A stretch of 64,000 nucleotides of DNA from Amphiscolops sp. MND2022 (taxonomy: Eukaryota), in assembly GCA_964187785.1 (NCBI GenBank), contig OZ076409.1:21020001-21084000 (forward strand), in the 5' to 3' direction. Position numbers and translations under genes: made by a program. Under the pieces are notes generated by a model. That model had not been told where the DNA came from, did not search any database, and worked only from the letters and a program-made list of their open reading frames with translations. Shown in pieces: positions 7,251-64,000 of this stretch. Numbering within the stretch: the stretch's first letter is position 1; each line of letters starts with the position of its first letter.

Positions 7251-7284
7251 TGGCTGAACTTGTAATTGACAAACAAATATGTTT

Positions 7285-7760
7285 ATACTTTTTCAGCATC
7301 TTTCGTTCGTCACCTAAAATTTCCTAGTCATCAAAAAATCGAACTTGTTTACAGCAAACCCTTGTTGATACATATTATTTCAGTCCGGCGTCTAGAAATC
7401 AGGTATGAAAGATCCTAGTCGCGTCAACCATTCGCCAACCTTTGTTGGAAACAATTTTGTTCTGGTGAACATAGTTCCTGTCTTAGCGCCATTAAAGCGG
7501 CAAAATTAGGCTTGTTCATACTTTGAATTCATACGCTAGGCGTGAACAATTACTCAACAACCAGTTCAGAAATTGGGAAAACCAAGAATATATGATGACT
7601 CGCAATTTTGGCTGCAGGACTGAAACGAAGAAAAAGTGTTCTAAGAATGGCAAGCCAAAATTGGAGAAATAATACTAGAAAAGAATATGCATTCAACAAC
7701 TAATGCACTGGTATTAACACATCATCTTCAACAAGTAACTTCATAAACCAGTATAAAATG
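7285..7760 (+). repeat. Diverged interspersed repeat, copy 1
   Basis: Alignable by eye with the region from about 12258 (tatacttttt/ccagcatc...cacctaaaa...atttcagtcc.gcgtc...aaatcaggtat). Ends are approximate. Confidence 0.6.
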
Positions 7761-22048: not shown

Positions 22049-23206
22049 TTTTACGTCTGCAAGGTAAACTAACAAAAACACTTACCAAGCTTTACGACGG
22101 CCTGGTTGACAACTTGCGGACAACTTTAAAACTTGTTTGTCCAGGAAAGGCACTTGCAAAAATCACTTCTCTGAACCTTCAATGGGTGATATCGCAACTA
22201 TTTTCAATAAAAATTTAGCTTGCGTTACTTTGAATAAGTTTCCGAAGTCGGTGAAGCAATTACTGCATCTTTGACTTTGCACTTTTTCTGTTTCAAAAAC
22301 ATAAAGTAGCTTTGGAGCTCTAAATTGTGATTATGGGAATCAACTTAGCTGTCTGGATGAGTGGTAGCGTCGTTGATCTGCTAAACCAGACGATAAGTCC
22401 AAATCCTTGCGTCCACGATAACTTTCTCAAGCAAAAATATCGCAACCATATGCAATATAATAAATTGACGTTGGAATTTCGAAACAATATAATATCACTT
22501 GTTCAACTCCAAAAAGCTCTTCAATAGCCAGAGTTAACTGAATTACTTGAACGAGAAACTTCCAAGCTTTCACTTTCTTCAATACTTGAGTAGCAAAGTC
22601 GACTGATTTGGATCTCTACTTGGTTGCTGGTCTCTGGTGTCTTAGGAGTTAACTCTGGTTACTTTTACATACAGGAAATACTTAATAGTGGATGTTTGTG
22701 GTTAAATTTACCATCACCACACAAGCGCCTTGATATATAGAATAAGCAGAAACAAACTATTTAACTGAGATGAAGATATACACCAAAATATGTAAAAGTA
22801 TATATAAAAAGCATACATTTACACCATTTTATGGTTCATGATTATATTTGTTATTTGCACTCAAAGCTTCTATCAGGTTACAAACACTCTATCGACTTCC
22901 GCCTGGACTAGATATAACCAAATATGACCTACTTGAAAGGTTTATTACACAAACAGAACGATAAAGCACCAAATTTGTACTATATCAGAGGGAAGTCTGA
23001 TTTTGAGCCAGAAAAACTTTTTTTTGAAATTTTTGTCTCTGATTCTCAATTTTCTTGCCCAAATCGGTCGAATGCCATAAAAAAATCGGCTGCTTGCTAC
23101 TTTCGTCTTCGAAATCCAAAAAATAACGTCTTTGTAGCAGTTCGAAAACCAGGATTTTTGACCCCTTCTGGTCACAATTTCTCAAGTCAATTCTGAGGCG
23201 CCAACA
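22049..23206 (-). repeat. BEL/Pao 3' LTR
   Basis: Direct repeat of 29923-31080 (offset 7874). Starts TGTTGGCGCC on the - strand after GAAAACGGGGCCGGCGT and ends ...GACGTAAAA. Confidence 0.95.
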
Positions 23207-26200: not shown

Positions 26201-26481
26201 TGACCGAGTTTTCTAACAAAATTACTTTGTATATCCTTTTCAATGGTAGCTTGATATGCATTTTTCATTTCCGAGTCCTTCTCTAGTCTCTTTTCCATCG
26301 ATAAGAACTGTTGATAAGCTGAGTAATAATTGTTAGGCCGATCGGGATTGTCATCGACCCACATTAAACCAACTTCATAACGCTCGCCGTTGTGTTTTGT
26401 TGTTCTTTCTAAAATTGAAAGTGCTCTCTTTTCTTCTTTGGATCGACCAGAGACATCACACACTGAAGCGTATGTCTCCAT
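23182..26481 (-). CDS. pol: BEL/Pao Pol (RT, RNase H/Pao peptidase region, integrase, C-terminal DUF5641-like region)
   Basis: YLPHHPV, KVRRVCNAAS, ADIESMFLQV, FGAKSSP, NFYMDD, HIFSDAS, SIPRLELQAA, H-H-C-C, GVDYFGP, SDNGTNF, PHFGGVWERLV. The stop lies inside the 3' LTR. Confidence 0.95.
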   Translation of the reverse strand: METYASVCDVSGRSKEEKRALSILERTTKHNGERYEVGLMWVDDNPDRPNNYYSAYQQFLSMEKRLEKDSEMKNAYQATIEKDIQSNFVRKLGQEEIDKTENDTQWYLPHHPVKHPHKPGKVRRVCNAASKFKGVSLNDKLLSGPDLLRNLVGIIFRFREHQIAITADIESMFLQVAVPKEECRVLRFLWRDRPDDDIGIFEYNRHVFGAKSSPTCANYGFQQGGRDNKKEFPVAAATIDRNFYMDDLVKSVDTPQEAIECYQQLVETLKRSGFTLKKWASNCPDVLEIIPSEDHLESNEFTLNAESSPILGLEWIIDADSLQVCRGPNKGCPNEVTQRVVLSFVSSVFDPMGIFAPFTMRMRMLLKSIWIRFGQSWDENINEEDKRIFLEWVKEMQTIKQTSLPRNYFSNIPKNLQLHIFSDASLEAMCIVAYFRGENEEGIEVSFVLGKCRIAPIKQLSIPRLELQAALYSVRLRKFIIEEHDLPINSVTHWTDSVTVLQWLNSADKKQNVFVANRAAEILETSTIDEWKHIRGELNPSDIGTRGITIEKLSESEWLTGPSWLRDHPDDWPLSLQPINVIPDDHAEVAVVANTSMTQELAVKWNKFSSFSKCVRVIAFCLRLKYRSQSKVLLVEELNRAEERVLRMIQRESFSEIFNEKESFGKTKNCGNLSKFAPFFDEKGVIRIRGRIKHANLSFEQRHPVLLSTKHGMVITMLRDLHFEHNHEGVEYVRSVIQQKFWIIGLGNALRSIKSSCVFCRKLRAQNKTPLMADLPPERLDYQSYPFTNVGVDYFGPFEVKLLRRSMKRWCCLFTCLTTRAVHIEVVRSLDTDSCLVAINRFVARRGKPATIVSDNGTNFVGSARELKEYINSWNHDQITSELAQKHVVWKFNPPGAPHFGGVWERLVRSCKKAMIPILGNRALTDESLTTTMCLVEQTLNARPLTPASDDANDLEALTPNHFILGRANICIPFIPNAELYANHRKMFRSCQAYADMIWKRWVKEYLPQNNARSQWNKSEPNLQVGDLVWLIEDNVKRSHYKMARVLQTYPGKDGVVRSVLIKTHDGTLKRPVIKLAPVFKERFQSENGAGVVGASELT

Positions 26482-26493
26482 GTCCCACCATTT

Positions 26494-29400
26494 TTAAATT
26501 TGATTCGCCAATGAGTCGGATGCAACTGAAAGATTACAGGACACTGATAGGTTACTAGCTTCTTTTTTTGGCAAGGCTCCGCTAATGGTCCAACCCAGTG
26601 CTGTTTTAACTGCCCATGGTTGATTTCTTTCGCCAGATTTGTATTCCAGCGGCCTGATTAAATGATAAGCATCCTGACCGAAAATAACTTTAACATCAGT
26701 CATTGAGACTTTAATATTAGGATCAGATAAATAATGGTACCCTTCTTTTAGTTTTCTGAAGTCATAGTCTTTTTCACCAACATTTAGGTTAGGATGACTG
26801 CAGAACGTTACAGTCTCTCCAGCCGTTTCTGTTTCGGTGGAGCCCACTTTTGCTGTTACTATTTGCGTTTTCATATCAGACAAACCGTGAATGCCGGCAA
26901 CGGACATTACCGATTCTTTACCTTTCAATCTGAGAAGATCAACCAAAGTTTGATCCATAAACGAAACAGTGGATCCGGTATCACAGAGCGCAATGGTTTC
27001 AACACATCTTTTTTCATTACCTATCGAAATAGGAATCAGCTGTAAGAAACCGCTGCTTCCCGTTGAAAGCAATGAAGAACTGCCGGCCCTGTTTTGAGAC
27101 GGAGGATCTTCCGTTTTCTTTTCCTTGGTATCTCTATCAATTGTCTGCGAGTCCGAATGTAGGAGCCTGTTGTGTTTCTTAGTGCAACCATTCACACCAC
27201 AAACACGTTCTGATTTACAGTCTTTAATTAAATGTGAGTTTAAGCAACAAAAGCAAAGTTTCAGTTTCTTCATTGTTTCGTATCTTTCATTAACACTTTG
27301 TTTTTCAAACTTGGCACACATCCACAGTTTATGGTCGCCATCCTTTAATGGATATTGTTTGTTAGGCGCTGGAGTGGTTTTGTTTTGATCATTCGACACA
27401 AATGTTGACGTCTTTACCTTTTCCGAAGAGCTTTTTTTATCTGACGGCAATCGGAATTGCACCGTCATCTCATCGTGAACATAAGCAACTTCGTTGAGCC
27501 ATTCGCTGAACTTACAAAGATCAGCATGGTAGTATCCTTTGCTCTTGGCAAGGAAAAACCACTTGGTTTTCAGTTCAGGGGGTAACTTTCTCAAAGCTGA
27601 ATTCAGAACGGACTCTGAATACAAGTCTCCTGTGAAACCAAACTGTTTCAAAACATTGACACAAGTAGTGATCAACTGAGCATACTTAATGATAGCCGCT
27701 GAGTCATGCGACTTGATAAACGGACTCAAATGGATTTGCTTCATCTGTGCATTAACAATTGTTTGTGGACGTCCAAAATTGGTGACTAAAACATTCCATG
27801 CTGCACTGTACATGACTCCTGAGTAACCGAGTCCCGCAATAGCCGCCTTGGCCTTGCCTTTAACGAGTATTTTCAAGTGACTCATTTTTGCATTGTCATC
27901 GATAGGTGCATTGTGGGTGGTAGCTGTGAACAAACTGGACCATTCCGGCCACTCTAATGGATCTCCATGAAATTCAGATAGTTTCAACTTAGGTAAACTT
28001 GTTTGAACAAATTGTACAGGTTGATGTACAGGTACCGCTGGGGTAAAGGAAGGAAAAGGATTTTCTACTTTGAAAGTGGTATTCGCGAATCCATGTTTAG
28101 GCTTCGGTTCGTCATTACCTCGCTGAAGTGAGGTGATTGGCTTCGGAAGAGTAATCACAGGGTTTTTTCTCTGGGGTGACTTACTCGTAGCTCTGTTTTG
28201 AGGTTGCGATGGCAATGGTTGATTTTTCTGATGAGAATATTCTGGAAGTCTCTGCGGCAGCACACTCGACCCCCCTTTGTTTTCTACTTCTCTGCTAGAT
28301 TCCTTAGGTTGGGAGAAACACTTATCAAAATTCTCATCACTTTGCTCTAACCAACTTTTGATGTCGCTGTTTTTGTCTTCGTCAAGTACGAGAGACATCA
28401 GGCTTGGACAAATTGACGGAGCACGAAATGACCCTTCAGCCTCTTCTATCTGCAGTCGCATTTCGTGTTGCTCAAGAGCTTTCTTGCTTTCCATTTCAGC
28501 AATTTCAGCTTCCGCTTGTAAATCAAAAAGCTTCTGGCTCATCTCCATTTGTTTCTTTGTTTTCTCCAATCTCAACTCTCGCAGCCTCTTCTCAATTTCC
28601 ATTTGCGACTTTTGCTCTAATACATTAGCATGCATCTCTAAGCGCCGTCGTTCACTTGCTTTTGACAAGTCGGAACCCACATTCGATTCCCGAGGTTTGT
28701 AGGTATCGCTTTTCGGCAAAGTTCGTGAAGGTGAAAGATCCACTAGCGTACGTCTCTTCGCTGTACTCAAGGTCACTGATCCTGTTTGCCGAGGAGCAAC
28801 TTCCGCACGACTCTCACTTTTATCAAACACTGTGGATTGGTTAACATCTCTCAACAGTTTCAATCCTCTTTGTAGAGTCTCATTCGCCTTTTGTTTCGTT
28901 GAGGCGCCGGAAACATTTACGTTGTCTTTCGACAACTGTGAACGTACAACACCCGACTGTGTTGACTCTTCAGGATTAGTTGTACCCCTTTCCAATTCAT
29001 CAAGTCCTTCCTCAGGATTTGAAAAGATGGTTTTGCTATCTAAGTTTTGGGAAGTGACATCGAATTCTGCACCTGTTTCATCTACATAGGGATCCAAAGG
29101 CTCAACATAAGACAAACATTCTTGTGTTACCTCTTGTAACAGCAGCTTAGCTTGTTCAAGCTCCTCTTCTTTTGGCTTCAAGAAATTTTGATGAAATGGT
29201 TGTAAAAAACTTCTTTGTTGGTTCAAGATCTCTTCTAGTTTTTCCTTCAGGTCTTGAACTTCAGGTAAAACTGATTTAATTCTAGTAGCTCTCGCCCCTT
29301 TAATCATTAATTGCTGGAGATTTTTTGCTTTTGCTTGAAAATCATCCATTATTCGATACCAGTGGTCTGCTGCTCGACAATATTTCAAGAAGTCCTCTTT

Positions 29401-29838
29401 ACTTTTTGCATACTTTGCAAGTAATTTTATACCGTCAAATTGTGGGAACACTTCTGTCCAATTCGAGAGACATTGATCGATTTCTTTTAAAAGATCTGTC
29501 TTTACTTCTCTGCGGGCACTATGGTATCTGTCTTTGAGCATAGGCAGCCCAAACTCGAATTCTTTTTCGAATTTGTCTCTAATTTCCATGAATTTAAGAT
29601 ATAAGTTCCCCAAAACATATCTCAAATTTGAAGAATCCTGTTGCTTTTCTTTCAACTGTTCGAAGTCAGGACCAAGGTTTTTCATGGAACGGAAATACTC
29701 CACAAAGCGATCTTCATGATCATTCCAAGCTTTCAATGCTGAAGAATTTTTCAAACCTTCAGAGAAAGACATCCTTTGGATGGACTTTCCCTTGGTAATG
29801 GTCATCACTTTAGGGTCAATTGTTCCACCACTGGCCAT
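26494..29838 (-). CDS. gag: BEL/Pao Gag plus aspartic protease; same frame as pol, separated by one TAA
   Basis: LPKLKLSEFHGDPLEWPEW (DUF1759-like), Cys/His knuckles (CFCCLNSHLIKDC, CGVNGCTKKHNRLLH), ALCDTGSTVSF protease motif. First ATG after the PBS is at 29838. Confidence 0.92.
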   Translation of the reverse strand: MASGGTIDPKVMTITKGKSIQRMSFSEGLKNSSALKAWNDHEDRFVEYFRSMKNLGPDFEQLKEKQQDSSNLRYVLGNLYLKFMEIRDKFEKEFEFGLPMLKDRYHSARREVKTDLLKEIDQCLSNWTEVFPQFDGIKLLAKYAKSKEDFLKYCRAADHWYRIMDDFQAKAKNLQQLMIKGARATRIKSVLPEVQDLKEKLEEILNQQRSFLQPFHQNFLKPKEEELEQAKLLLQEVTQECLSYVEPLDPYVDETGAEFDVTSQNLDSKTIFSNPEEGLDELERGTTNPEESTQSGVVRSQLSKDNVNVSGASTKQKANETLQRGLKLLRDVNQSTVFDKSESRAEVAPRQTGSVTLSTAKRRTLVDLSPSRTLPKSDTYKPRESNVGSDLSKASERRRLEMHANVLEQKSQMEIEKRLRELRLEKTKKQMEMSQKLFDLQAEAEIAEMESKKALEQHEMRLQIEEAEGSFRAPSICPSLMSLVLDEDKNSDIKSWLEQSDENFDKCFSQPKESSREVENKGGSSVLPQRLPEYSHQKNQPLPSQPQNRATSKSPQRKNPVITLPKPITSLQRGNDEPKPKHGFANTTFKVENPFPSFTPAVPVHQPVQFVQTSLPKLKLSEFHGDPLEWPEWSSLFTATTHNAPIDDNAKMSHLKILVKGKAKAAIAGLGYSGVMYSAAWNVLVTNFGRPQTIVNAQMKQIHLSPFIKSHDSAAIIKYAQLITTCVNVLKQFGFTGDLYSESVLNSALRKLPPELKTKWFFLAKSKGYYHADLCKFSEWLNEVAYVHDEMTVQFRLPSDKKSSSEKVKTSTFVSNDQNKTTPAPNKQYPLKDGDHKLWMCAKFEKQSVNERYETMKKLKLCFCCLNSHLIKDCKSERVCGVNGCTKKHNRLLHSDSQTIDRDTKEKKTEDPPSQNRAGSSSLLSTGSSGFLQLIPISIGNEKRCVETIALCDTGSTVSFMDQTLVDLLRLKGKESVMSVAGIHGLSDMKTQIVTAKVGSTETETAGETVTFCSHPNLNVGEKDYDFRKLKEGYHYLSDPNIKVSMTDVKVIFGQDAYHLIRPLEYKSGERNQPWAVKTALGWTISGALPKKEASNLSVSCNLSVASDSLANQI

Positions 29839-29901
29839 GGTTTTGCAAATGAATAAATTGCAAGTACTAATCGTTTGAAAAAGGGTCTGCAAAACGTGCC
29901 T

Positions 29902-29919
29902 TCCCGGGTCGCGGCACCA
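29902..29919 (-). promoter_or_regulatory. Primer-binding site, tRNA-His-like
   Basis: TGGTGCCGCGACCCGGGA lies 3 nt after the 5' LTR and resembles the complement of a tRNA-His 3' end. Confidence 0.75.
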
Positions 29920-29922
29920 AAA

Positions 29923-31080
29923 TTTTACGTCTGCAAGGTAAACTAACAAAAACACTTACCAAGCTTTACGACGGCCTGGTTGACAACTTGCGGACAACTT
30001 TAAAACTTGTTTGTCCAGGAAAGGCACTTGCAAAAATCACTTCTCTGAACCTTCAATGGGTGATATCGCAACTATTTTCAATAAAAATTTAGCTTGCGTT
30101 ACTTTGAATAAGTTTCCGAAGTCGGTGAAGCAATTACTGCATCTTTGACTTTGCACTTTTTCTGTTTCAAAAACATAAAGTAGCTTTGGAGCTCTAAATT
30201 GTGATTATGGGAATCAACTTAGCTGTCTGGATGAGTGGTAGCGTCGTTGATCTGCTAAACCAGACGATAAGTCCAAATCCTTGCGTCCACGATAACTTTC
30301 TCAAGCAAAAATATCGCAACCATATGCAATATAATAAATTGACGTTGGAATTTCGAAACAATATAATATCACTTGTTCAACTCCAAAAAGCTCTTCAATA
30401 GCCAGAGTTAACTGAATTACTTGAACGAGAAACTTCCAAGCTTTCACTTTCTTCAATACTTGAGTAGCAAAGTCGACTGATTTGGATCTCTACTTGGTTG
30501 CTGGTCTCTGGTGTCTTAGGAGTTAACTCTGGTTACTTTTACATACAGGAAATACTTAATAGTGGATGTTTGTGGTTAAATTTACCATCACCACACAAGC
30601 GCCTTGATATATAGAATAAGCAGAAACAAACTATTTAACTGAGATGAAGATATACACCAAAATATGTAAAAGTATATATAAAAAGCATACATTTACACCA
30701 TTTTATGGTTCATGATTATATTTGTTATTTGCACTCAAAGCTTCTATCAGGTTACAAACACTCTATCGACTTCCGCCTGGACTAGATATAACCAAATATG
30801 ACCTACTTGAAAGGTTTATTACACAAACAGAACGATAAAGCACCAAATTTGTACTATATCAGAGGGAAGTCTGATTTTGAGCCAGAAAAACTTTTTTTTG
30901 AAATTTTTGTCTCTGATTCTCAATTTTCTTGCCCAAATCGGTCGAATGCCATAAAAAAATCGGCTGCTTGCTACTTTCGTCTTCGAAATCCAAAAAATAA
31001 CGTCTTTGTAGCAGTTCGAAAACCAGGATTTTTGACCCCTTCTGGTCACAATTTCTCAAGTCAATTCTGAGGCGCCAACA
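29923..31080 (-). repeat. BEL/Pao 5' LTR
   Basis: Direct repeat of 22049-23206. Confidence 0.95.
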
Positions 31081-31142: not shown

Positions 31143-31624
31143 AAACAAGCCGGGACCGGCCCAAGTCGGCGCCATATCTAAGGCTCAAAAATAGCAAAAA
31201 GACTTCAAAATGTCAAAGTATTGGTGAATTTGGTACCTTTTATGAAGAAAAAAATTTTTGAAAAAAAGTCTCACAATGCCGAGAAAAACTGAAAGGGAGG
31301 ACCCCTTTGGGATTTTTCAACTTCCACTCTGTTGCAAAACTCCAAAAAAATTGAAGGGGACCCTTTGGTGGGAAAAACATTTGAAAAAAAGTCGCACAGT
31401 GCCGAAAAAAATCTAGAGGGCCTTTGGTCTCGTCCGGTTTTGTATGTCACGCGGGAAACCTTTTTGGTTCAGTTCCTTGGGCCAACAGGTACAATTTGGC
31501 GTCTTTTCAAAATTTTATAGAACTTTTGGTAGAACTATTTTGGTCACTTCAGGTGGTCTCAAAAAACACTGACGAAAAGCCATGACTGTAGTCGACTCTT
31601 TTCAGGAAAAGCGCCGACTAAAAA
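31143..31624 (-). mobile_element. Non-autonomous Helentron-like element (HINE/DINE-1-type)
   Basis: Subterminal inverted repeats AGTCGGCGC (31164) and GCGCCGACT (31611), terminal hairpin GCCGG-GA-CCGGC (31149-31160), A/T-run flanks. Confidence 0.65.
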
Positions 31625-32365
31625 CAAGGTACTTTCTGCTGGAAGTGTCAAAATATCTGTAGACAATCATCTAAGTATTAGTAACGATATAATATTCCTT
31701 TATCTGTAAAATATGTTTTTTTCAAGAGCAAAGTATGTGCTTCGGTGTTGTGGAGGAACAGGAAAAAGGTGTACCTTGGAGGAATAAGAAACATGGTCCG
31801 AAGTGGATATAATTTTCAGAAGTGCGGCCGGAAAAATAAGTGAAACAACATCAGAGAAACTAGAGAGTTCACAAGAATCACCAACTTTGTGAAGGCTTTC
31901 ATAAAAAGCATACATTTACACCATTTTATGGTTCATGATTATATTTGTTATTTTCACTCAAAGCTTCTATCAGGTTACAAACACTCTATCGACTTCCGCC
32001 TGGACTAGATATAACCAAATATGACCTACTTGAAAGGTTTATTACACAAACAGAACGATAAAGCACCAAATTTGTACTATATCAGAGGGAAGTCTGATTT
32101 TGAGCCAGAAAAACTTTTTTTTGAAATTTTTGTCTCTGATTCTCAATTTTCTTGCCCAAATCGGTCGAATGCCATAAAAAAATCGGCTGCTTGCTACTTT
32201 CGTCTTCGAAATCCAAAAAATAACGTCTTTGTAGCAGTTCGAAAACCAGGATTTTTGACCCCTTCTGGTCACAATTTCTCAAGTCAATTCTGAGGCGCCA
32301 ACAGCCTTTTTATTCAAATTGGCTTGTTGCAGGCGTTAATTTTGGCTATTTTGGACAATAATATT

Positions 32366-32847
32366 AAACAAGCCGGGACCGGCCCAAGTCGGCGCCATAT
32401 CTAAGGCTCAAAAATAGCAAAAAGACTTCAAAATGTCAAAGTATTGGTGAATTTGGTACCTTTTATGAAGAAAAAAATTTTTGAAAAAAAGTCTCACAAT
32501 GCCGAGAAAAACTGAAAGGGAGGACCCCTTTGGGATTTTTCAACTTCCACTCTGTTGCAAAACTCCAAAAAAATTGAAGGGGACCCTTTGGTGGGAAAAA
32601 CATTTGAAAAAAAGTCGCACAGTGCCGAAAAAAATCTAGAGGGCCTTTGGTCTCGTCCGGTTTTGTATGTCACGCGGGAAACCTTTTTGGTTCAGTTCCT
32701 TGGGCCAACAGGTACAATTTGGCGTCTTTTCAAAATTTTATAGAACTTTTGGTAGAACTATTTTGGTCACTTCAGGTGGTCTCAAAAAACACTGACGAAA
32801 AGCCATGACTGTAGTCGACTCTTTTCAGGAAAAGCGCCGACTAAAAA
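32366..32847 (-). mobile_element. Second copy of the HINE-like element (inside the tandem duplication)
   Basis: Matches 31143-31624. Confidence 0.65.
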
Positions 32848-34045
32848 CAAGGTACTTTCTGCTGGAAGTGTCAAAATATCTGTAGACAATCATCTAAGTA
32901 TTAGTAACGATATAATATTCCTTTATCTGTAAAATATATGTTTTTTCAAGAATAAAGTATGTGCTTCGGTGTTGTGGGGGAACAGGAACAAGGTGTACCT
33001 GGGAGGAATAAGAAACATGGTCCGAAGTGGATATAATTTTCAGAAAAGCGGCCGGAAAAATAGGTGAAACAACATCAGAGAAACTTTTTGAAGCAATCAA
33101 GTAATCTACTAACTTCCGTCAAAGTTTGCAAACTGGCGAATAAAAACTGGTTTTAAAAATGTGGATTATGTTCTTGTTGGAAGATGGAAGTGAAATTAGA
33201 AGCAAAGCGACTTCCGTCAATTTAGGTCAGGAACATTTGTGCCTCGAACGGAATTGAAAGGAGATAAGCAAATGTTCAGCAGCTACCAAAAGGAATGTCA
33301 AGAGGAAATTAAAGTTATTTGCATTCACACTTGCGCGCGCATCTCTCTGAAGCGGCATGACAAAGATTCGAAGGGAAGTTATGGGATTACCTTAATTGGG
33401 TTATCTAACCTTGACGGCAAAGTGTTGCGTTTCTTCTTCTTTAATCGCAGATCCCACCACCAAAGAGAATTTCTACAAGAGAATGTTCAACGAAGCACCA
33501 CATTTTTAATTCCAAAAAAGGCAGCGATTTTGCTCAAGTTTTCAGTTCTTGCGGATTCCCAAATAACCCCCATCGCCACAAGACCACGGGTACATGGGTA
33601 GTTAACGAAGTTAAACATGCTTCGCATAACAAATTTGTAAGCTTCCTGCAGTTTATTCTTTCATTTTAATTCAACTAAATATTTTTGCTCAACCAAATGA
33701 GCCTCCGCCTTTTAATTTGTCTACATTCGTTCACGCCAAACAAGCCTCAGGTCTTTGAAAGTTCTAAACTCTTCCGCATTGTTTTTTTGATTGTGAATTT
33801 TTCACAATTATTTTCGGGAATACCTTGATGTTCCTTTTAGAATTGTGATATTGGCGAAAAAAGACGAGAATTTTGTTCCACTTGAAAAATAAATATCTTG
33901 AGGTAACAAGCGAGCCCATATCAGGACATGTATCACTCAAAGTGTCCTCAGAGTCCTTTGGGATTACATACTAAATACGTTCAAAAGTAAAAGTAAGCAG
34001 GAAAAGCAAAATACTTCTCTCGTTTGTATACTCAATACTTAAGTA

Positions 34046-53228: not shown

Positions 53229-54966
53229 TGTCATGAATATTTAGATCAGGGTAATCATTGTTTAACTGGTTCTCATCCTGTTCATTTCTCAAGTTGTTCT
53301 TTGCGTTTAGATTTCGCTGAACTTCGGAAATTAGTTCCGGTCTCTCAGACGGGATGTCCCATCCCTTTCTGGTCCCGTGTCCTGATCCGGCCATAATAAC
53401 ATTTTGGATTTGAGGAAGCACCTGAGTACTTATCGCATCACTTATGGCTTTCTGTAATTGGACAATCACAGAATTCATCATCTCGTCCATTTCTCGTGAA
53501 ATGGGGGAATTTAATTCACTTGACAACCTGTTTATCTCAGCACTAGAGTTGCCTGTAACTGAATTGCGGTAACATTCGGTATTTGTCCTAGAGCTAATAT
53601 TTCTCTGGTTTCTACCTATGTTCCCATCTTCATTTTCCGATTCATTGCTTGCAAAGCTTCTAGATCTCCTAAGCAAATTGCTAAATTGCTATATAACTGC
53701 CTTCGCTTTCCCTTGTGTTAAAATGGTTCTCACCTAGCATGATATCTAAATTCTCGATATCGGATAACATTTCAAGTCCTCTCGACTTTCTTGCCTTCTT
53801 CTGTTTTCTAGTTGTAGGCATTAAGACAAGACCGGGTTGAATATTTTAATTATTGAAACCGGAAAGCTGGCAGAGTAACTGTATTGAGTATTTTGAGTAT
53901 CTTTACTAGTGTAAGGTTAACTGGATTAATCCATTCCCCCAACGGGGTGGTAGTATTTTTACTGCTTGGGGAATGACAATCACATTTTTACATGACTATT
54001 TAAGAAAAAAGGAATCATATGATCTACAACTTCATAGGGAAAATGTCCCGACACTTACAATTATTGGGGACATATAAGGAATGGCATCTAAAAGTCACCT
54101 GATAAAATTGCAGCTTCAAACAAATTACCTGCTTAGGCAATTGCATCAAAGTGTCAACAAATACCTCCGCTTACACATTTTACAACAGAGAGAAGTGAAG
54201 GCACGAGCCAACACAAGGCTACTACTGACTACATCAAAAATGGAATGTATCAATGCATGTAGGAATTTCAATATGATTCAAATATGCGTGAAAGGTACAC
54301 TTTCATGTCAAGGTCGGAATGGGTTCAAAACCATGAAATAAACGGCACATTAAGGGGGCATGGTAGAATGGCCTTAATTGTCCATTATATTTTGGTTGGG
54401 GTTACTTGTATACCAAAGCGTCACAAATGCTTTTATCTAGTTTAAAATCACGAATTTATTAGCTCCGCCAAAATACCAGTCTAATTAGGCAACAAAGTAC
54501 TATAATGCATGAATTGGCCGGAACCGGACATTTGACCGAAGTGCTCGTGAAGGCAGGCTACTTTAAGTCAAAAGGCCTCACTCGGCCATTGTAGCATAAA
54601 AGCACCTATACAACAAAAGAAACGATTCTGATTGGTTGATAAATGCACTTGAACACGTTTCCTTCTCGCGATTAACTTGCGTATTGTTTGCTATTGTATC
54701 AATTCAACTTCGCAATCTACTTTCACTTCTCAGTATACTGCATCAACACATTGATTTGGCTAATCCCAAATCGTAATATTAACAGTCTAATATAAACTGC
54801 AACATATTAAAAATATAACAGTTCGCAAACAAATATTATTGTTAAGTGTGAGTTTTAAAGTTCAATTTTGTACTTGCTCAAAATGTAGGTAGGGTTCCGG
54901 GTACCAATTCTTGGTTTGTTGCCGTTGTCTTTATCAGTGTGCCATCACAGGCGGCAGCCTGCGACA
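53229..54966 (-). repeat. 3' LTR (1738 bp, TGTCGC...CATGACA)
   Basis: 5' boundary coincides with the end of homology to the TSD-flanked solo LTR. Contains the MPTTRKQKKARKSRGLEMLS start (ATG 53821). Confidence 0.8.
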
Positions 54967-55663
54967 CTGCGGGTGTTATGAAAAGAAACGCGCCAGCGTT
55001 TAAGCCGTTCTCGTACGCCTCTCTTCTGATCCTTGTTATGTATTCAGGTTCTCCTCTGGGCTTAGATCGGGCAACATACCACTCCACTTTCTCCCTTTTG
55101 ATCGCCTCCGAAGATCTGCTACCAACCATGCATCCAGAAAATAGTTTCTCGCTGACATTCTCGTAAGGCCTTGTGTTTTGCACATGGTAAGAGGCGTGAA
55201 AACCTCCCAAGACAGGCTGCATAATGGTGGTGTCCATACTTGGCCATCTTTCGTGATCAGGGGGTGACATCGGGGACTCTGGCACGGGTAGTAGGGTTTT
55301 GCAAAGCTCTATACGAGACTTCCCCGTTTTCTTCGGGGGAGCATAACACCTTTTCTTGTCAAAGTATTTATGATCCAATTTTGGAGTCACGTCCGTCTGC
55401 GTCTGGGAAGAACTGGGACCAGCTTCTGGTTCGTCTTCTGTAGGCTCGCCTACGGTCATTATACGGCCTCCAATTAACATGGGGCTGGAGGTGACTTCTC
55501 TTTCGATTCTAGCTACAAGTTGCTCCGTATCCGTGGAACAATCCGTCTCCCAGTCTGATGACTCGTCTTCGCTACTTGAGATGTATATCACTGATCTCTC
55601 AGAATCATCAGAATCAGATTCTTCAAGGCCAAATAGTTTTCTCGCGAGGCTGTATTTATTCAT
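54878..55663 (-). CDS. Accessory ORF X, unknown acidic protein; last 28 codons lie inside the LTR
   Basis: Open frame (ORF track 54878-55813; likely start MNKYSLARKLFG at 55663). The C-terminal peptide is 17/28 identical to the one encoded by the solo LTR. Confidence 0.75.
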   Translation of the reverse strand: MNKYSLARKLFGLEESDSDDSERSVIYISSSEDESSDWETDCSTDTEQLVARIEREVTSSPMLIGGRIMTVGEPTEDEPEAGPSSSQTQTDVTPKLDHKYFDKKRCYAPPKKTGKSRIELCKTLLPVPESPMSPPDHERWPSMDTTIMQPVLGGFHASYHVQNTRPYENVSEKLFSGCMVGSRSSEAIKREKVEWYVARSKPRGEPEYITRIRREAYENGLNAGAFLFITPAVSQAAACDGTLIKTTATNQELVPGTLPTF

Positions 55664-56642
55664 GATGACTTTTTTCGCTATTTTTGAAGCTGCCAGAGGC
55701 AACTGAATTGAGATGAAATTTGGTGAAGAATGAATTTGCCCGATCTCAGAATTTAGCCGAATCAGACCTTTTCCGAAGTTTCCAATTTGGCGGTTAAAAC
55801 TTCGGTTGATCATCCTGATCCGTCGTAAACTTTCCTCAAAGGAATTTCATAACCAGTCGGCATCCTTTGATAACTTAGTGTTTACCTCTCATCAATATCA
55901 TCACTGTGAGAGGCGTGAACAACGCTTGAGTTGTAAACATCAACTTTCCTTATTTCAAGTGGGTACTTAGTGAGCCGCTTGAAGGTAATTAACGGCACGC
56001 GGCACCAAATCTTTCTCAAAATAGCTCTGACCAATCAGAATCAAGCTTTGGTAAATTGAAAAATAAATGATAAAAATGGCGAAAATAGTAAATCTGAATT
56101 ACCCAAAATGGCGAAAATTCTAACTAAGGGTAATTATGGTAACTGAACGAAACGGTAAAACAAAACGGGGCGAACGGCAGTAACCGGCCGGTAACTAAGT
56201 AAACTGTAAAGAGCGGAGAACTCTGTACATTTCGCTGGCACACTCCATATTCTAATTGTTTCTTTTGCTTGGATTCGCTCATTAGACACTCATTTCTCTC
56301 CGTCTTCCATCCAGTTTCAGACTTCTTGCTGTAGGAGTATCCCTCTTCTTTCCTGTCAGATCCGGCCGATTCCCCTAATTCCAGCAACCGATCAGGGACC
56401 TATTCCCAACAGTTGATCCGCCACAGTATGTCTTCAGCTGAAGGTTGGTTTGTTTCAAATTTGAACTAAATTTAACTTGATCAGGGCCAAATTTGTTCAC
56501 AAAACGCTTCCTGTTTCCATCAATGAACACGTGGTAACACATTTGATTCAAATTTTCAAAGCACTTCCGGAAGTTTTCTAATGCGGTAAAAAAGGATTTC
56601 TTTCAAGGAAGCACACCGCCAAATTTCATCTCCTTTTGTTCA

Positions 56643-59600
56643 GTGAATCAGTCAGAAAAAGAATCCCAAACACAAACCAACACTCCAACTGACATCCCCG
56701 TTGAGTCTGTCTCAGCAGCGACTCCTGTGAGCGCATCCAACATTGCTTGTGGGCCAGTCCCTTCTCCGTCACTTTTTCCTCCTACTCGACCCCTTAGGTC
56801 GCCAGCCAACTCCACTAACAGCATGGCAAATGTTGCAAGTACCGATGGGAACTCCCAGCCTTCTGAAGAAGCCCAACGCTCAGCCCCACAACAACTTGAG
56901 GAAAATCTTGGAGAGGTAGATCAACTGGACTCAGAGAGTGTGTCGAAGGTTTTACCTCCTGCTGAGGGCGAAACCCCGACTAACCCGTTGCTCTTCCGGA
57001 CCAGCACCCCTACTCAGGACCTGACTAGTGCGTCCACGGTGCTAAATTTGACCCAATTAGAAACTGGACTTACCATCGCACCTTCCTCTCGAACCATGCT
57101 ACCTGAATTGTTGCCAGTTGCTATTCGCGCCGCCGAAGTATCAGCGGTTTCGTTTTTGCAGACTGAGACTGACGATGGTTCGTCTTCCTGTGATGCTCCT
57201 AGGTTACCAACTGGTGAGACCAAAGTAAGGTTCCTCGACGACAGCACAGGGGCTGAGGAAACTGGTGATACATCCCGTCAGGCTAGTGGTCCCCCTTCTG
57301 TATGGATTCGTCCCACCTAGCGCCGCAAACGCGAAAATGGGTGAAGAATCATCATCGGAAGTCTTTGCCCACATTCCTGATCCTTCACAACCGTCTACAT
57401 CTGCTCCACATGACACCACAATTCGAGAATTCTCTGGCCGGGGTAGAGCCATTCTGAAGCAGTATTTTGACGAAGACGCTTCGACCATCAGCTTCCCCCT
57501 CGGCCACAGGACAGTAGCGTTCACGGAACCTCAAGTCTATCATCTTCTCCGTGTACTGACCGATGAGACTTTGAAGATGTCATATGAGGCAATGGAACGC
57601 ATGGTCATTGGAGCAGTCAAGGGTGCGCCTGTTACCTCTGAATCTAGAACTGGCCATTTCAAACTCCAGCGAAGAGCCCAAACGCCTGGACCTGGGCAAC
57701 AAGAAAACTCCAGTGATTGCTCCCAAGACGCCACTCATTTCGGATTTAGGCCCGACACCTCTGAGGAAGTGAGCACTGACAGGGAAGTGAGGGAAATGGA
57801 CTCCTTCAATGACAGTGACAGTTCTGGGGAGATGATCTTGATCTCCCAAGCCTTTAAAGAATCTTCCGGCACCGGACCTGCCACCCGTGAGGCTGTCAAC
57901 ATCAACCCCAAGAATGAGGGCTTTGGGTCTGCGGGTCAATCCAGCCTCGATGCTACGCTCTCAGAACTACGAGACCAAGCAACCCCTGTAGAGCCTCCTG
58001 CGCCAAATTCCAGCAAACGGCCCAAGAAGAAGAGACGCGATCAAGCACGGGGTGTACTCATGAAGGAGAAATTCTTCTATTCTTCTCTAAAATCGGCTGG
58101 ACACGTTCCTTCATTTCTGGCCCAGCAGATCCCCTGCATAACCCTTACATGGTGTAGTGCCACATATCTAAGAAGAATATATCGATAAACACAAAGGGCA
58201 CACTAGAGATTTTACGTCACCACCGCACCGACAAGCACCTTAGACGGGACCAAAGGTGGCGCTATGAATATCTAAGGAGCGTTCAACCAGTAACGGGCAA
58301 GGTGCAACATCGGGTGAGAGGGCGCAATGGCAAAATACTCTCCAAGATCGAGTTGGCAAAAAAACTGGCAAAATTCAAACACGCAGAACTAGTCGACAAT
58401 GAGGAGCGTTTCCTCTTTTACGACGACTTCCTGAAAGGCACGTCAACAACACTCGTCACTCTGACCAATTACCAGTCTAGCTACTGCGACTTCGACTGGG
58501 GGATAACAGAATCTCGGTAGGCTTCACTTAAATTAATACAAGGGCTAGGGCAGATACGGTTTCCCTTCACACTTCATGTGTTTTGTATTTCCTTTTAGAC
58601 CATCTTCCAGTACGTTTTCAATTGCCTGATGAGTGACCTGGCTGCACAGATTGCTGCCACTCAAGGCTTTGGGATTGAGTTTGAGATGCTGGCTCGAATA
58701 GACTCATGTCCGTAAGGTTCTGGAAGTGCGACTCTCTGTGACGAGTTTTCATCTGCCGAAGCGGATTTCCATCCAGTGATTTGACGGGAGAGTTGGGCTC
58801 GCAGAGTTGCTTCCGTTTTGAACATCTTCGACTTGAGACAATGATGCGCAAACCCACCTACAGTGTGTTCGGCCGTATAGACTTCTTCTCGGTCCTAAAG
58901 TGTCTCATGGTCTCGTTGGGAGCGGCCACTGATGAAGATTGGGTCATACAGTCCCCTGACCTGGCGCAAGTACTTATATTATGTTCATCCATGAGGCAAG
59001 GTTGCCAGTAAACAGGTAAAATTTTAGTGTTGATTTGGGTTTGTTTAGGCCATTGACACTTGCAAGTTGAATTTATCGAGTCTACCCAATCTTTGTCGTG
59101 AACTCATGAAGCATTGGAAGGCAGTCCGTCAATACCTCACTTCCCACACTCCCCATCAAGGCATGCAGGGAGTTCATAACCAAGTGCAAAGCTTCGAGTG
59201 GTCGATCACTTGCGACTCTTTCTTCGTGGTGAAGCTGGAATTTTTCCAGCGAATAATCAGCGATTGTAAGTATGCAGTTCTATTTTGTTCGGCATATTAG
59301 GACATTGTCACAATAACGTGTATTTCTGACTAAGGGAATCGGTGAAACAATGGTCTTTAAACATGGTTCTATATATGCGTTCTGTCAGGTCTGTATAGGT
59401 GATCTTATGTGTTTCCAGATGTTTCCAGTTTCGTCGTTAATCTCCAAGGCCGACGGGATGCTTCCTTCTTTCTTTGCGGAGAGGTCTGTCGTTTCGTCTC
59501 GAAATTGTGTGCGCGATGCTACTTGCCTGAGTCCATCCCGGTGGAAAACTCGTAGTTCCTCCTACTGGGGCTCAAAGTAAGCGAAGGAAAATTCATTACT

Positions 59601-60563
59601 GAGGAGAACTTCCTCGTCCGGTTCAGGCTTGCCGCCAAGATAGCTACTGCCAGTAAGCAGAGCGCAGAAGTAGTACTTTTAAACAAGAAGTCCGAAAAAG
59701 CCGCTATCTATAAAAGAGACGCCGAGGTGACTATCAGTTTCGTCAAAGAAGGGCTACAGTTCATCCAGTGCTCGATTAATCAAGTCCTCAGTCAGGCTGG
59801 TTTGAGCTCTGAGATGATCAAGGGATTAGCTGCCTTTGATCCCTTCGTCCTTTTCAAGCGCCCATCCGAAGTTGGACTCCGGCACTTTGAAGTACTGTAC
59901 TCAACTTTCCAGCTTCGGTCTTGGGTTACTAGTGCCAACGAGAACTCTTGCCGAAATGAGTATTTAGCCTTGCTGGATCACCTTGCTGATTTTGACTTGA
60001 TGGAAAGCTCCACTGACCTCATAGATTTCCTGATGGGGCTTGAGTTCTTTCAGACTCATGAGCACTTTTGCTACATCTTCAAGTTGTGTTGCCTTTGCCT
60101 GACTAGTTGCAGTCCTCAGTATCCCCCAATATTGTTCGGGAATGTTGACACAAGTGGGTACCGAAGTCGTTTCGCCGATCTGGTGGTTCCTTGCCAAAGT
60201 TATCTTTCTTGTGTGTCTGATTTCATCTCCAGTTGCAGTTCAGATGCTAATTTGGAGAAGTTCGCTGTTCTTAGTGAGTCCTTTGAACGATCTGCTTTTT
60301 CTCCCGAGTATGATCCATGGACTTATGTGGATGAGTTTGGTTGTTCCAAAAGATACAAAGGTCTACTTGCCACTTACAGGGCTGTCACTGCAATTCCTTC
60401 TGTCCGTTCAGACCGCATAGAAAAAGATACAAGCTCGATCGTCCCTGATGACTCTGCAATAAAGGTGCCTTCCAAGAAGAAAAGGAAGAGAGCAGGTAGC
60501 AATAGCAGTTCAACTATCTCGTCAGCTTCCAAGAAACCCGTTCAGGGATCTTCTAAAGACTAA
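56643..60563 (+). pseudogene. Spliced accessory gene antisense to pol, hAT-transposase-like; disrupted in this copy
   Basis: Low-complexity N-terminus, degenerate Zn finger (V*CHISKKNISINTKGTLEILRHHRTDKH), GT-AG introns 58517-58598, 58970-59048 and 59266-59418 (the last two join ORF fragments in frame), and a basic KKKRKR tail. Confidence 0.7.
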
Positions 60564-60794: not shown

Positions 60795-63700
60795 TTAGTA
60801 TCTGAAGTCTTCTGAGTAGTTTGGAATAGGATTAGGCCTGAGGTTATATCTCCCTCCTCTAGGGCTCAGACTTTCGTTTCTGGTATCGTTCTCAGATATT
60901 TCGGACACGATAATATCATCCCCCTTTTTGGAGAATTTTGTGCGTCATTTTCATTCATCGATTTTCTTTTTGAAAATTTTCCGTCGTTTTCTAGGCTTTC
61001 ATCCGTATTCGGCAAAGTTTTTTCTTGATTTTTTGGGTAAACGGCCGCATTCGGCCAATCAGATTCTTCATTTCTAGTCGCTTCATTAGCTTCATTTCTT
61101 TTAGTGATGTCATCATTTAATCTTTCATTCCGGCTATGCGCCGCATGGTCAGCGTAATTTGTTTCGTCTCTCGTGATTTTGTAATCCGCTTCATTCTCGT
61201 CTACGTCACTTGGAATCGGTTCTGCCGCATTCGGTTGTTCGCCATTCGGCAAGCTAGTCGGAATAGGATCGTGTCCTCGTGTATTTAGCTGGTCGCCGAA
61301 GTCTGTTTCCCACGTTATTATATATAAGTCATCTTGCGGAATAACAATTTCTTCATCAGGCTGTAGCCGCTGTTCTCGGAAATTGTCCTCAAGCGGTTGA
61401 TTGGGGACAAACTTTTTAAAGCGGATCCGATGCAATATTTGAGTCTTGTTTGTGTTAATTCGTCGTACAATATAATTTTCATTTGGCAAAACTTTTTGAA
61501 CTATAAATGGTCCAACCCAACGATAATCACGGAATGGAATTTTTGATCCTTGATGATCCGCTTTCGGCAGTAATCATTCTCCTTTAATGGAGCGGCTTTT
61601 GCTTTGCGGTCGTAATATTCTTTCTACTTGATATACGACTGCACAATATTCTGCTTTGTTTTGTCAATCAAGATTTTTGTCCGATTTTGTATTTCTTCTG
61701 CAAATTCGGTTATAGGGCTAATCTGCTAGTTTGGATTATTTCCAAGCTTGTGATCCAAGATAATATGTGGAATCCGTCCAAGAAATACTCTCGTCGGTTC
61801 ACACCCGATGCTGGCATGGTAACTAGTATTATGATTGAGTACTGCTAATGGTAAGTATTTGTGCCATTGTCGGCGGTATTCCCTGCATGCCATTTTGAGG
61901 TTTGTTTTCAGTGAGGCATGTGTCCGCTCTAATTTCCCAATCGTTTGCGGATGTTTTGTTGTTGCACATTTGAGTGTTATGCCTAAAATTTGTGTAAATT
62001 CCGCAAAAATTGTAGACGTAAATGCAGTACCTTTGTCAGTAATAAGTGTTGTCGGTCAATATGCATGTTTAGTCATGATGTTGATGAGCGCTTTTGCTAC
62101 ATTGATCGCTGATGCATCCGTAAGAGGATAGGCGAAAAAATATCTAGAGAATGCGTTGATTGCTGTTAGGACGTTTTCAAACCCTCCACTCGGGGGAAGA
62201 TTCGGCAATAGGTCGATTTGCATGGCGTCTTCATGTCCAAGGTCCCATTCGGGCAAGTTGAGCAGTTCAGGCGTAATTGTTGTATTAGGGACTCACTTTT
62301 CTCTTGCGCATTCTTCACACCCTTCTACCCATTTGTTGACGTGTTCAGCCATGCTAGGGTAGTAATACCTCTGTCGAATTTCCTGCAACATTTTTGAGAT
62401 GCCAGGGTGTTTATGCGCTGTGCCGTGAAGGGACTGAAGCAATTCCTGGAGTAAGTGTTGCGGGAGCAGAATTTGATGGTATTTAACGTTCCCTGTTTCA
62501 TCAAAGTATTGCCTCGTCAGGATTTCGTCTTTAAGTATAATTCGTTCCAGATTGTTTGCATAATGTCTGTATCGGGCATCCTGCTGCAGTAGGTTCTCTG
62601 AATATTCTTCATGAAGGAGTTTTGCCTTCAATTGTTGTAGTACTGCATCTTCGGATTGCTCGATAATGATTTGATTCGTCTTCCTTATTCGGACTTGTAT
62701 ATCAGGGTGTTGTTTGACCAGATTTGTTGACAGACTTTGTATTGTAACCGTGGGCTCATCAATAGCTGGATGTTTCCTGATTGCTTCTTTCCTTGCCCAG
62801 TATTGTTCCTCTGTCTCATCATTGTCATTAGTGTAGAAGATTTGTTCTTCTTGTGTCACTCCTGCGGATTGGACGTTTATTTCAATTGGTAACGTTTGTA
62901 CATCTTCGCGTATCTTCATGACTGATTTGTTCTTCGGGTCTGCTTCTAAACGGGACAAATAGTCGGCAGCTGTATTTTGTGCTCCTGGGATGTACGCTAT
63001 GACAAAATTGAACTGAATCACGTAATCACACGCGTTTCACAGGGCTGGGGGTATTATTTTTGTTTGAAAAAATTGTGTGACAGCTTTGTTATCTGTAAGG
63101 ATAATTACCGGTTTCGGCGCACCACAGAAGATATGTCCAAATTCCTTGAATGCAAAGTAAATTGCAAGGAATTTTTTGGCGTAAATTGACATCTTGATCT
63201 GTGCTGGGGTAAAGGTTTTTGATCCGTATGTTACAGGGGCATAGGACTTTCTGAGTGACGTGAATTTCTGGCTTGGATCGTCTTCAATTAGGACAGCGTA
63301 CCCAGCTGCACCAAAACTTGCATCAGTCATTAGTGCAATTTGCTTGTTCGGGATAGGTTGTTGTAGGGCCAAATCGCAACATTTGTCGAGTGTTTTATTG
63401 ATTTCTTCAAATTGCTGGATTAATTCTTTCGATACTTGGACCTTTTAGTCACTTTTCAGCATCTTGTAGAATGGAGCAAGGCGTTCTGAAAGTCTTGGGA
63501 CATAATTTCTGTAGTAGTTCAAGAATCCCAAGTAGCGCTGCAAAGCCTTTTTCGACTTTGGGAATTTGGATTTTTCCAGAAAGTTTTGTACATTCTGTTT
63601 TTAGGTTTGACGCCTTGTGGGGCAATCGTTCGTCCGAGGAAATCAATTTCTTTTGCACCGAAGTGACATTTGTGCATTGTCAACTTAAGGCCTGCTTCCT

Positions 63701-64000
63701 GAATGCATTTGAATGTTGCTTTCAGGTTAGCTATGAAGTGATTAGCATCATTAGCTGCAATGCCGATATCGTCCACGTACTGGGCACATTGGTCCGCTTT
63801 GATGACTTTATCAAGGTATTCCCTCATAAAGCTCGAAAATGCGGACAGAGCTCGGCTAAGGCCTTGTGCCAATCGTCTATATGCAAATGTGCGGCTGGCG
63901 AAGTTAAAGGCCAACATTTCAATAGATCGTTGGTCAGCCATCGGCAGGCAGTGGTAAGCCTGTGAACAGTCTAATTAACAGTACAGTTTTTTGCCTGCTA
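60795..64000 (-). pseudogene. pol: Ty3/Gypsy pol (RT, RNase H, integrase) with frameshifts and stops
   Basis: QGLSRALSAFS, AQYVDDIGI, LMTDASFGAAG, ILTDNKA, NTAADYLSR, HGTAHKHPG...CEEC, QIDLLP, TDKGTAF. Ends YNLRPNPIPNYSEDFRY*. Confidence 0.93.

Follow-up and report, generated by a model that had tools for sequence, protein, structure and literature searches.

A family of Ty3/Gypsy retrotransposons in the genome studied here carries an antisense gene between pol and the 3′ LTR, and this gene is a fixed, selected and intron-containing component of the element. One decayed copy on the minus strand, ~15.6 kb long, spans the end of the window, by which we mean the whole stretch of DNA that was analysed (G000:C1:21020001-21084000, 64,000 nt).

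Architecture of the element

The LTRs with TG..CA ends, the short target-site duplication and the pol domain order PR-RT-RH-IN, which is the Ty3/Gypsy order, place the element in Ty3/Gypsy. Its pol-to-3′ LTR interval measures 5.8 kb, given the LTR at 53229-54966, and not the ~3.9 kb stated in an earlier reading made from the letters alone (the sequence-only reading); the minus-strand pol stop at 60795 had been placed correctly there. The interval holds two head-to-head genes, a spliced gene on the plus strand and an ORF on the minus strand. The spliced gene and pol are convergent, with a 231-nt spacer between them. The features are as follows.

53229..54966, minus strand: 3′ LTR, 1738 nt, TG..CA ends
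54878..55663, minus strand: second of the accessory genes, same orientation as pol, 261 aa counted from the ATG, overlooked by the sequence-only reading
55685..56427, no strand: spacer between the divergent genes, with conserved blocks, CCAAT, and AAATGGCG twice
56428..56443, plus strand: antisense gene exon 0, ATG, 16 nt, phase-1 donor
56444..56643, plus strand: intron 0, GT in 36/38 and AG in 33/38 copies, unusually conserved
56644..58516, plus strand: exon 1, low-complexity N-terminal region, finger and helical region, broken in the window copy
58517..58598, plus strand: intron 1, GT and AG each in 38/38 copies, same position in 12/12 further copies
58599..58969, plus strand: exon 2, predicted RNase H-like core, 371 nt long, most siblings having 486 nt
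58970..59048, plus strand: intron 2, GT in 36/38 and AG in 35/38 copies, also seen in further copies
59049..59265, plus strand: exon 3, with an extra intron at ~59183 in a basal subfamily and in distant lineages
59266..59418, plus strand: intron 3, GT in 37/38 and AG in 36/38 copies, also seen in further copies
59419..60563, plus strand: exon 4, helical domain followed by a basic Ser-rich tail, interrupted by a single stop in the window copy
60795..64000, minus strand: pol (RT, RNase H, integrase; Gypsy order), stop at 60795, running past the window end
L021:3048-4817, outside the window in the adjoining stretch: 5′ LTR of the same element, 93.7% identical to the 3′ LTR

A 5-bp target-site duplication flanks the LTR pair of the window element, and the 5′ part of gag is located within the LTR, from ~53821. 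Among 13 LTR pairs checked, the 5-bp duplication was exact in 9 and matched at 4 of 5 positions in 1, and the ends of the other 3 were truncated. The duplications varied in sequence across the 10 complete pairs, which speaks mildly against strict sequence targeting. In some copies the two LTRs are 99.5-100% identical, indicating recent insertions. A PBS-like site starting TGG is conserved after the 5′ LTR, and no tRNA genes were detected in the five stretches scanned. Distant lineages have a short run of purines as their polypurine tract, and in the window's clade the tract is not rich in purines. A Bel/Pao element is present elsewhere in the same window and, given the range of that group, suggests that the host is an animal.

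Splicing, distribution and selection of the antisense gene

The splice sites were aligned across 38 copies, 3 of 41 candidates having been left out because they contained N blocks or were rearranged in the 5′ part. Donors were conserved in 36-38 of the 38 copies and acceptors in 33-38, and most of the misses were gaps. As a control, 40 internal GT/AG dinucleotides of introns 1-3 were kept in a median of 18/38 copies, and only 4/40 reached at least 35. Identity between subfamilies was 34-66% in introns 1-3 compared to 68-80% in the conserved exons, and mismatches in the spliced frame affected 46-65% of third positions compared to 3-15% of second positions. Another 12 copies, of which 11 belong to distant lineages, were inspected by eye, and all 12 showed the same junctions and phases, GT..AG ends and pyrimidine tracts. 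The introns at 58517-58598, 58970-59048 and 59266-59418 proposed in the sequence-only reading coincide exactly with GT..AG sites conserved in siblings. Its further candidate at 56426-56643 has the right end, but the donor at 56426 is unique to the window copy and the true start is 56444.

A fifth intron, located in exon 3, occurs in the 5/38 copies that make up the basal subfamily and also in distant lineages; the clade that holds the window copy (clade support 89/94) lacks it and shows no scar in its place. Judged from this distribution, the fifth intron is ancestral and was lost precisely in the window's clade, as expected from recombination with spliced RNA. Taken together, splice-site conservation and precise intron loss make it a well-supported conclusion that the antisense gene is spliced. 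Introns that lie antisense to the genomic RNA escape removal before reverse transcription, and they persist in this element because the genomic RNA carries them only as the reverse complement. A search for an intronless last junction, with an exact degenerate pattern designed for the window's clade only, gave 0 matches. The junction of copy L105 was rejected as a precise intron loss since exon bases are also missing there.

We also considered an internal in-frame ATG of intron 0 as the main start and rejected it: the apparent codons are invariant at third positions, the conserved block stops at the AG, and there is a conserved upstream ATG exon with a phase-1 donor. It may serve as an alternative start. 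An open spliced frame of 1256-1297 aa was found in 10/38 aligned copies, a fraction that is not a genome-wide rate because many copies were picked for long frames. In the window copy, the first stop of the spliced frame falls at codon 231, and the finger is without its second Cys, which siblings keep. The single TAG ahead of a 278-aa terminal frame, noted in the sequence-only reading, is indeed there, the 278 aa being counted from a GTG. Relative to two siblings the window copy has gaps of 117, ~102 and 112 nt, the 117-nt gap falling after 56240, in the spacer. They were rejected as lost sense-strand introns, being private to this copy and within coding or conserved sequence.

Three protein searches of the genome returned 150, 109 and 109 scored places. 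The three sets were judged disjoint from their identity ranges, which gives >350 places in the genome; the first-look candidate numbers of 6,500-7,800 are not copy numbers. Copies were found on all 13 large contigs. The gene keeps a constant location between pol and the LTR, a point that the sequence-only reading had singled out for checking: in 86 of the 88 distinct copies with an exon-4 match, an integrase frame lies on the opposite strand and ends 59-446 nt away. The same was seen in 70/72 among copies selected by protein-only queries, and the layout is retained in lineages that share 29-36% identity with the window's clade in exon 4 and 60-72% in pol. The exon-4 tree and the integrase tree (a quick tree with 33/40 rows) contain the same three deep groups. 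A protein library search identified 491 representatives at E ≤0.001. Two that were tested are 97-100% present in this genome, another matches it at 38-40% only, and a further one was without a match at E 1e-110; the last two suggest that the family probably reaches another organism. A scan of metagenome contigs gave 174 pattern matches, none of which was confirmed.

Estimates of dN/dS by the Nei-Gojobori method (8 pairs in all) were read where synonymous sites were unsaturated. The finger, exon 2 and exon 4 had values of 0.05-0.09, indicating purifying selection on the main domains. The low-complexity N-terminus of the antisense protein had 0.18, the sense ORF ~0.11 and integrase 0.09-0.19. 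By this measure, amino-acid selection on both accessory proteins is as strong as on integrase. In one subfamily pair the integrase was 98% but exon 4 70% identical, and in another the sense ORF was 96% but exon 4 78% identical. From these identities, pol, the antisense gene and the sense ORF have evidently been shuffled between subfamilies.

The antisense protein, the sense ORF and the putative promoter

The antisense protein begins with an N-terminal region of ~460 aa. Most of this region is low-complexity S/T/P/E/D sequence; it also contains a single conserved hydrophobic island and a basic cluster. A finger with the pattern C-x2-C-x16-H-x5-H follows at 58158-58238 and leads into a helical region. 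The pattern is invariant in 17/17 rows and has no zf-BED Pfam match, and the confidence of the structure model is low there. When the finger region was modelled as a homodimer the score was 0.00, the fold itself being uncertain, and this value speaks neither for nor against dimerisation. The predicted core of exon 2 (three strands, helix, strand, helix, strand) is RNase H-like, and its model aligned to Hermes residues 139-268. The model of the exon-4 helical domain aligned to Hermes 367-609 with moderate scores, colinear with the core match. Thus, in the predicted models, and again with moderate scores, an RNase H-like core is interrupted by a large helical insertion in the Hermes order. Hermes took Foldseek ranks 1-4, with a best E of 1e-3. 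Of 30 Atlas neighbours, 20 carry the hAT dimerisation family; at the feature level the neighbours carry PF05699 and PF27046 and fall in hAT and FAM200/GTF2IRD2-like clusters.

Sequence-level comparisons gave no such signal. Pfam had no match for either accessory gene in window or sibling frames, PF05699 matched 0/89 members, a PDB sequence search with two profiles returned nothing significant, and a word-indexed search of exon 4 against longer proteins returned 0/4531 candidates. HMM and profile-profile comparison with hAT frames of this genome detected no similarity. Foldseek with the exon-4 model against PDB and viral models gave no match at E 0.001. Among the longest inverted pairs listed, no TIR pair flanked the antisense gene in any of 6 copies, an arrangement that the sequence-only reading had named as evidence against its proposal, and the flanks are homologous element sequence in all lineages.

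Hermes uses D180, D248 and E572 in catalysis according to the account in PMC2533014. Placed by motif and predicted secondary structure, the first Asp position of the antisense protein holds E, A or other residues and the second S or T, and the Glu position is variable, most often V, P, A, T or D. Loss of the catalytic triad is well supported at the level of motifs, the DDE positions not being D/D/E. The CxxH, RW and ERxFS motifs of active hAT transposases were absent on motif inspection. Taken together, the Foldseek ranking, the mapping of the models and the Atlas neighbours give moderate support to a hAT-derived antisense gene. This is how the sequence-only reading had described it: the protein motifs that it quoted are present, the DDE and ERxFS motifs that it could not recognise have no counterpart by motif, and its hAT likeness gained moderate support from structural (Hermes) and language-model similarity with sequence-level searches blank. 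Of the profile or structural similarity to hAT that it proposed to look for, the structural part was found (Hermes, Foldseek) and the profile-profile part was not. Basic clusters are present, and the antisense exons, with a maximum 19-residue hydropathy of ≤1.58, contain no transmembrane-like segment.

The last 89 nt of the sense ORF fall inside the 3′ LTR. Among the 56 copies for which ≥6 kb of upstream DNA was available, 49 had the ORF. Its product has an acidic N-terminus and an invariant C, H, CxxC, C series in 15/15 aligned copies, with one change in the window copy, and a conserved in-frame KIAKK-like stretch starts at 55684, upstream of the ATG. Three sense ORFs had no transmembrane-like, and in this respect no env-like, segment (maximum 19-residue hydropathy 0.6-1.2). 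An IYISS-acidic motif, written as a pattern after inspection, occurred in 67/120 sense-ORF homologues and 0/120 shuffles; we take it to resemble SUMO-interaction motifs. Atlas pointed to extended-PHD proteins (0.79), as a lead only. In the spacer between the two genes, the motifs are presumably NF-Y-like and YY1-like. Intron 0 contains GGAAG words at 56507, 56564, 56569 and 56607, four in 10/10 copies compared to ~0.2 in shuffles for this word, which was chosen after inspection; such words are typical of ETS-type promoter sites. From these features we infer that the spacer is probably an internal bidirectional promoter.

Proposed role, alternatives and known systems

We lean towards the reading that a dead hAT transposase was domesticated by the retrotransposon as a nuclear DNA-binding regulator with an internal promoter. 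A Gypsy ancestor would have acquired the gene of a hAT DNA transposon, reversed, between pol and the 3′ LTR and retained it as an accessory gene. Without recourse to the LTR, an internal bidirectional promoter, common to the sense ORF, would drive both a spliced mRNA of the antisense gene and the mRNA of the sense ORF. The antisense product of ~1280 aa would be a nuclear protein in which the finger, together with the hAT scaffold, recognises DNA of the element itself, in analogy to the Hermes BED domains that bind subterminal repeats as described in PMC10368747, and in which the long acidic low-complexity N-terminus recruits host factors. Element transcription would thereby be raised or protected, the protein being a transactivator or anti-silencing factor, and the sense ORF with its SUMO-interaction-like motif may serve the same task. 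A more speculative extension, which we regard as rather doubtful, is that these elements form a clade of 'complex' animal Gypsy elements that is old, spans species and has a two-gene regulatory cassette on an internal bidirectional promoter, in which a dead hAT recognises element DNA and a SUMO-binding zinc protein disarms host silencing. If true, the cassette would correspond, in a retrotransposon, to anti-silencing systems that act sequence-specifically, and the enzyme of a DNA transposon would have supplied its material.

Other roles for the gene can be weighed against the same data. That the dead-hAT protein is an integration tether or end-binding factor, which binds host DNA or cDNA ends with the integration complex and steers insertion or nuclear entry, seems unlikely to us. 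The ability of hAT scaffolds to bind and pair DNA ends, as reported in PMC10368747, the basic clusters, and purifying selection on the whole RNase H-like core and helical domain beyond the finger would suit this role, but the 5-bp duplications differ among the 10 complete LTR pairs, the copies are spread over all 13 large contigs, and integrase regions 98% identical in DNA are paired with antisense genes just 70% identical. We give a low probability to the gene being a brake, whose protein or antisense RNA damps its own element or shuts out competing families. The predicted transcript is antisense and convergent on pol, and antisense-RNA and protein roles are both discussed for plant elements in the account of PMC7264820; however, copies of the family are very numerous and some are young, their LTR pairs being 99.5-100% identical, and selection at the amino-acid level excludes a role of the RNA only.

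Two further alternatives concern ancestry. We consider it improbable that the gene encodes a selected accessory protein that is not hAT-derived and has the generic RNase H-like fold of another transposase or nuclease, perhaps retaining non-DDE catalysis. Many RNase H-like folds equal or beat Hermes by Z, and the sequence-level comparisons are all blank, but two separate models map in order onto Hermes, Atlas independently gives hAT and FAM200/GTF2IRD2-like clusters, and the succession of finger, helical region, RNase H core and long helical insertion is the hAT layout. An independent nested DNA transposon, or neutral cargo, is very hard to reconcile with a position fixed in 86/88 copies, strong purifying selection with saturated synonymous sites, the absence of a flanking TIR pair in 6/6 copies and the lack of similarity to the host hAT frames compared, even though nested insertions are common and the genome is rich in hAT elements (150 scored PF05699 matches).

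The preferred reading, a hAT-derived regulator fixed in the retrotransposon, has partial counterparts in several known systems. Plant Retand/Tat elements (TRP28, PF04195; maize Grande gene23; rice RIRE2) are, in the accounts of PMC11963269 and PMC7264820, Gypsy elements in which pol and the LTR are 2.9-6.6 kb apart and antisense ORFs are conserved. For the ORFs, DNA binding is predicted, and the Grande gene is driven by a promoter of its own and yields a nuclear product; the origin of the ORFs is given as unknown, with no resemblance to other transposons, and the function of antisense accessory ORFs of LTR retrotransposons is likewise given as unknown (PMC7264820, PMC11963269). The likeness lies in a Gypsy element with an antisense gene between pol and the 3′ LTR. 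In contrast to Retand/Tat, the present gene is interrupted by four or five introns, can be traced to a hAT-like origin and is paired with a divergent gene, and its host is probably an animal; the word 'intron' is absent from PMC11963269, and PF04195 had no match in window or sibling frames. Drosophila MDG1-group elements (sORF1/sORF2) and planarian Burro also represent animal Gypsy elements that retain extra genes, described in PMC11952523 and PMC6431247 as sense small ORFs or polyprotein domains, some of them membrane proteins. A spliced antisense transposase-derived gene is unmentioned in those descriptions, and the proteins studied here are without a transmembrane-like segment. Boty of Botrytis, with its antisense gene brtn between pol and the 3′ LTR, and an orchid Gypsy with an AlkB ORF likewise have an extra ORF fixed in a Gypsy family, but these are, as far as the accounts go, fungal or plant elements with unrelated cargo, and the AlkB ORF retains catalysis.

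Compared to the hAT transposases, the predicted protein follows Hermes in the succession of finger, helical region, RNase H-like core and helical insertion, but the gene has no TIRs and no 8-bp duplication, D180, D248 and E572 are without a counterpart by motif, and the protein adds the ~460-aa N-terminal region. It resembles the host-domesticated hAT derivatives FAM200, GTF2IRD2-like and ZBED in that its Atlas neighbours carry PF05699 and PF27046, and it differs from them in having been domesticated by a retrotransposon instead of the host. Among complex retroviruses, foamy bel and lentiviral nef are sense ORFs that overlap the 3′ LTR, as does the sense ORF described here. HTLV has an antisense regulatory gene near its 3′ end (PMC11963269, in its mention of that virus). 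Unlike complex retroviruses, the present element is without env, its proteins are unrelated, and its promoter is probably internal and not in the LTR. Searches of the full-text literature, a body that excludes Repbase reports and most subscription journals, turned up no paper in which a Gypsy element has a spliced antisense gene of hAT origin.

By these comparisons, the antisense gene would work like a Retand or complex-retrovirus accessory gene, and it is neither a TRP28 member nor an active hAT transposon. The data suggest that one kind of mobile element has recruited the protein of another kind as an accessory gene, and that spliceosomal introns persist, and are lost precisely, within a reverse-transcribed genome. 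Comprising hundreds of copies spread over many lineages, diverged and recently active, the family offers a natural series in which to study binding targets and counter-silencing in animals. An antisense ORF with a traceable DNA-transposase source implies that transposases can be domesticated by a mobile element as well as by a host.

Sense ORF and conserved non-coding sequence

The second accessory ORF of the Gypsy element (the sense ORF) lies head-to-head with the spliced antisense gene.

54878-55684, minus strand, second accessory ORF including its upstream KIAKK-like stretch

This in-frame stretch 5′ of the first ATG was kept in 21 of the 25 copies scanned, and its third positions vary among copies. 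Since the stretch is conserved in frame with such third-position variation, these data suggest that the sense ORF may have a non-AUG start or an upstream exon so far unseen. Conservation was also seen in non-coding sequence. Intron 0 of the antisense gene (56444-56643) is 67-88% conserved, compared to 34-66% for the other introns, and contains the word GGAAG four times, with one palindromic pair among these occurrences. Within the spacer between the two accessory genes, a non-coding block (about 3720-3815 in L058, another stretch of this genome) is nearly invariant between subfamilies and is deleted from the window copy (gap at 56241).

LTR boundary and gag start

In the window's clade, the sequence before the 3′ LTR (54967-54990 in the window, and the corresponding sites in sibling copies) lacks a purine tract and carries a pyrimidine-rich run with CAG at its end. 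Distant lineages, which share the gene layout, carry a short stretch of purines at the equivalent place, within the sense ORF. The gag frame starts ∼590 nt into the LTR and continues through the primer-binding site (window 53229-53821, minus strand; L041:3809-5560).

Other features of the window

22049-30959, minus strand, Bel/Pao retrotransposon whose two long open frames span 1153 and 1103 aa
2-1189, plus strand, long open frame of 395 aa
41001-41936, plus strand, long open frame of 311 aa

The LTR segments of the Bel/Pao retrotransposon are identical, and its insertion is very recent. Neither the 395-aa nor the 311-aa frame had a match in Pfam. An abundant repeat (31144-33085) has two copies in the window, 1223 nt apart; the Gypsy element is bordered on its 5′ side by this repeat as well (adjoining stretch L021, from 4819), and the repeat occurs near several sibling copies.

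Mosaicism and distant lineages

The pol, antisense gene, and sense ORF sequences are mosaic between subfamilies (L040, L058, and L090-L103), a pattern that points to frequent template switching. In a distant lineage, a dUTPase-like domain (PF00692, E 4.7e-5) was detected at residues 345-427 of the minus-strand frame L122:2-2929, in the order protease, dUTPase-like domain, RT. On another contig (G000:C5:3368637-3397971), three distant-lineage copies have identical scores and a spacing of 14,102 nt, suggesting that they form a tandem array.
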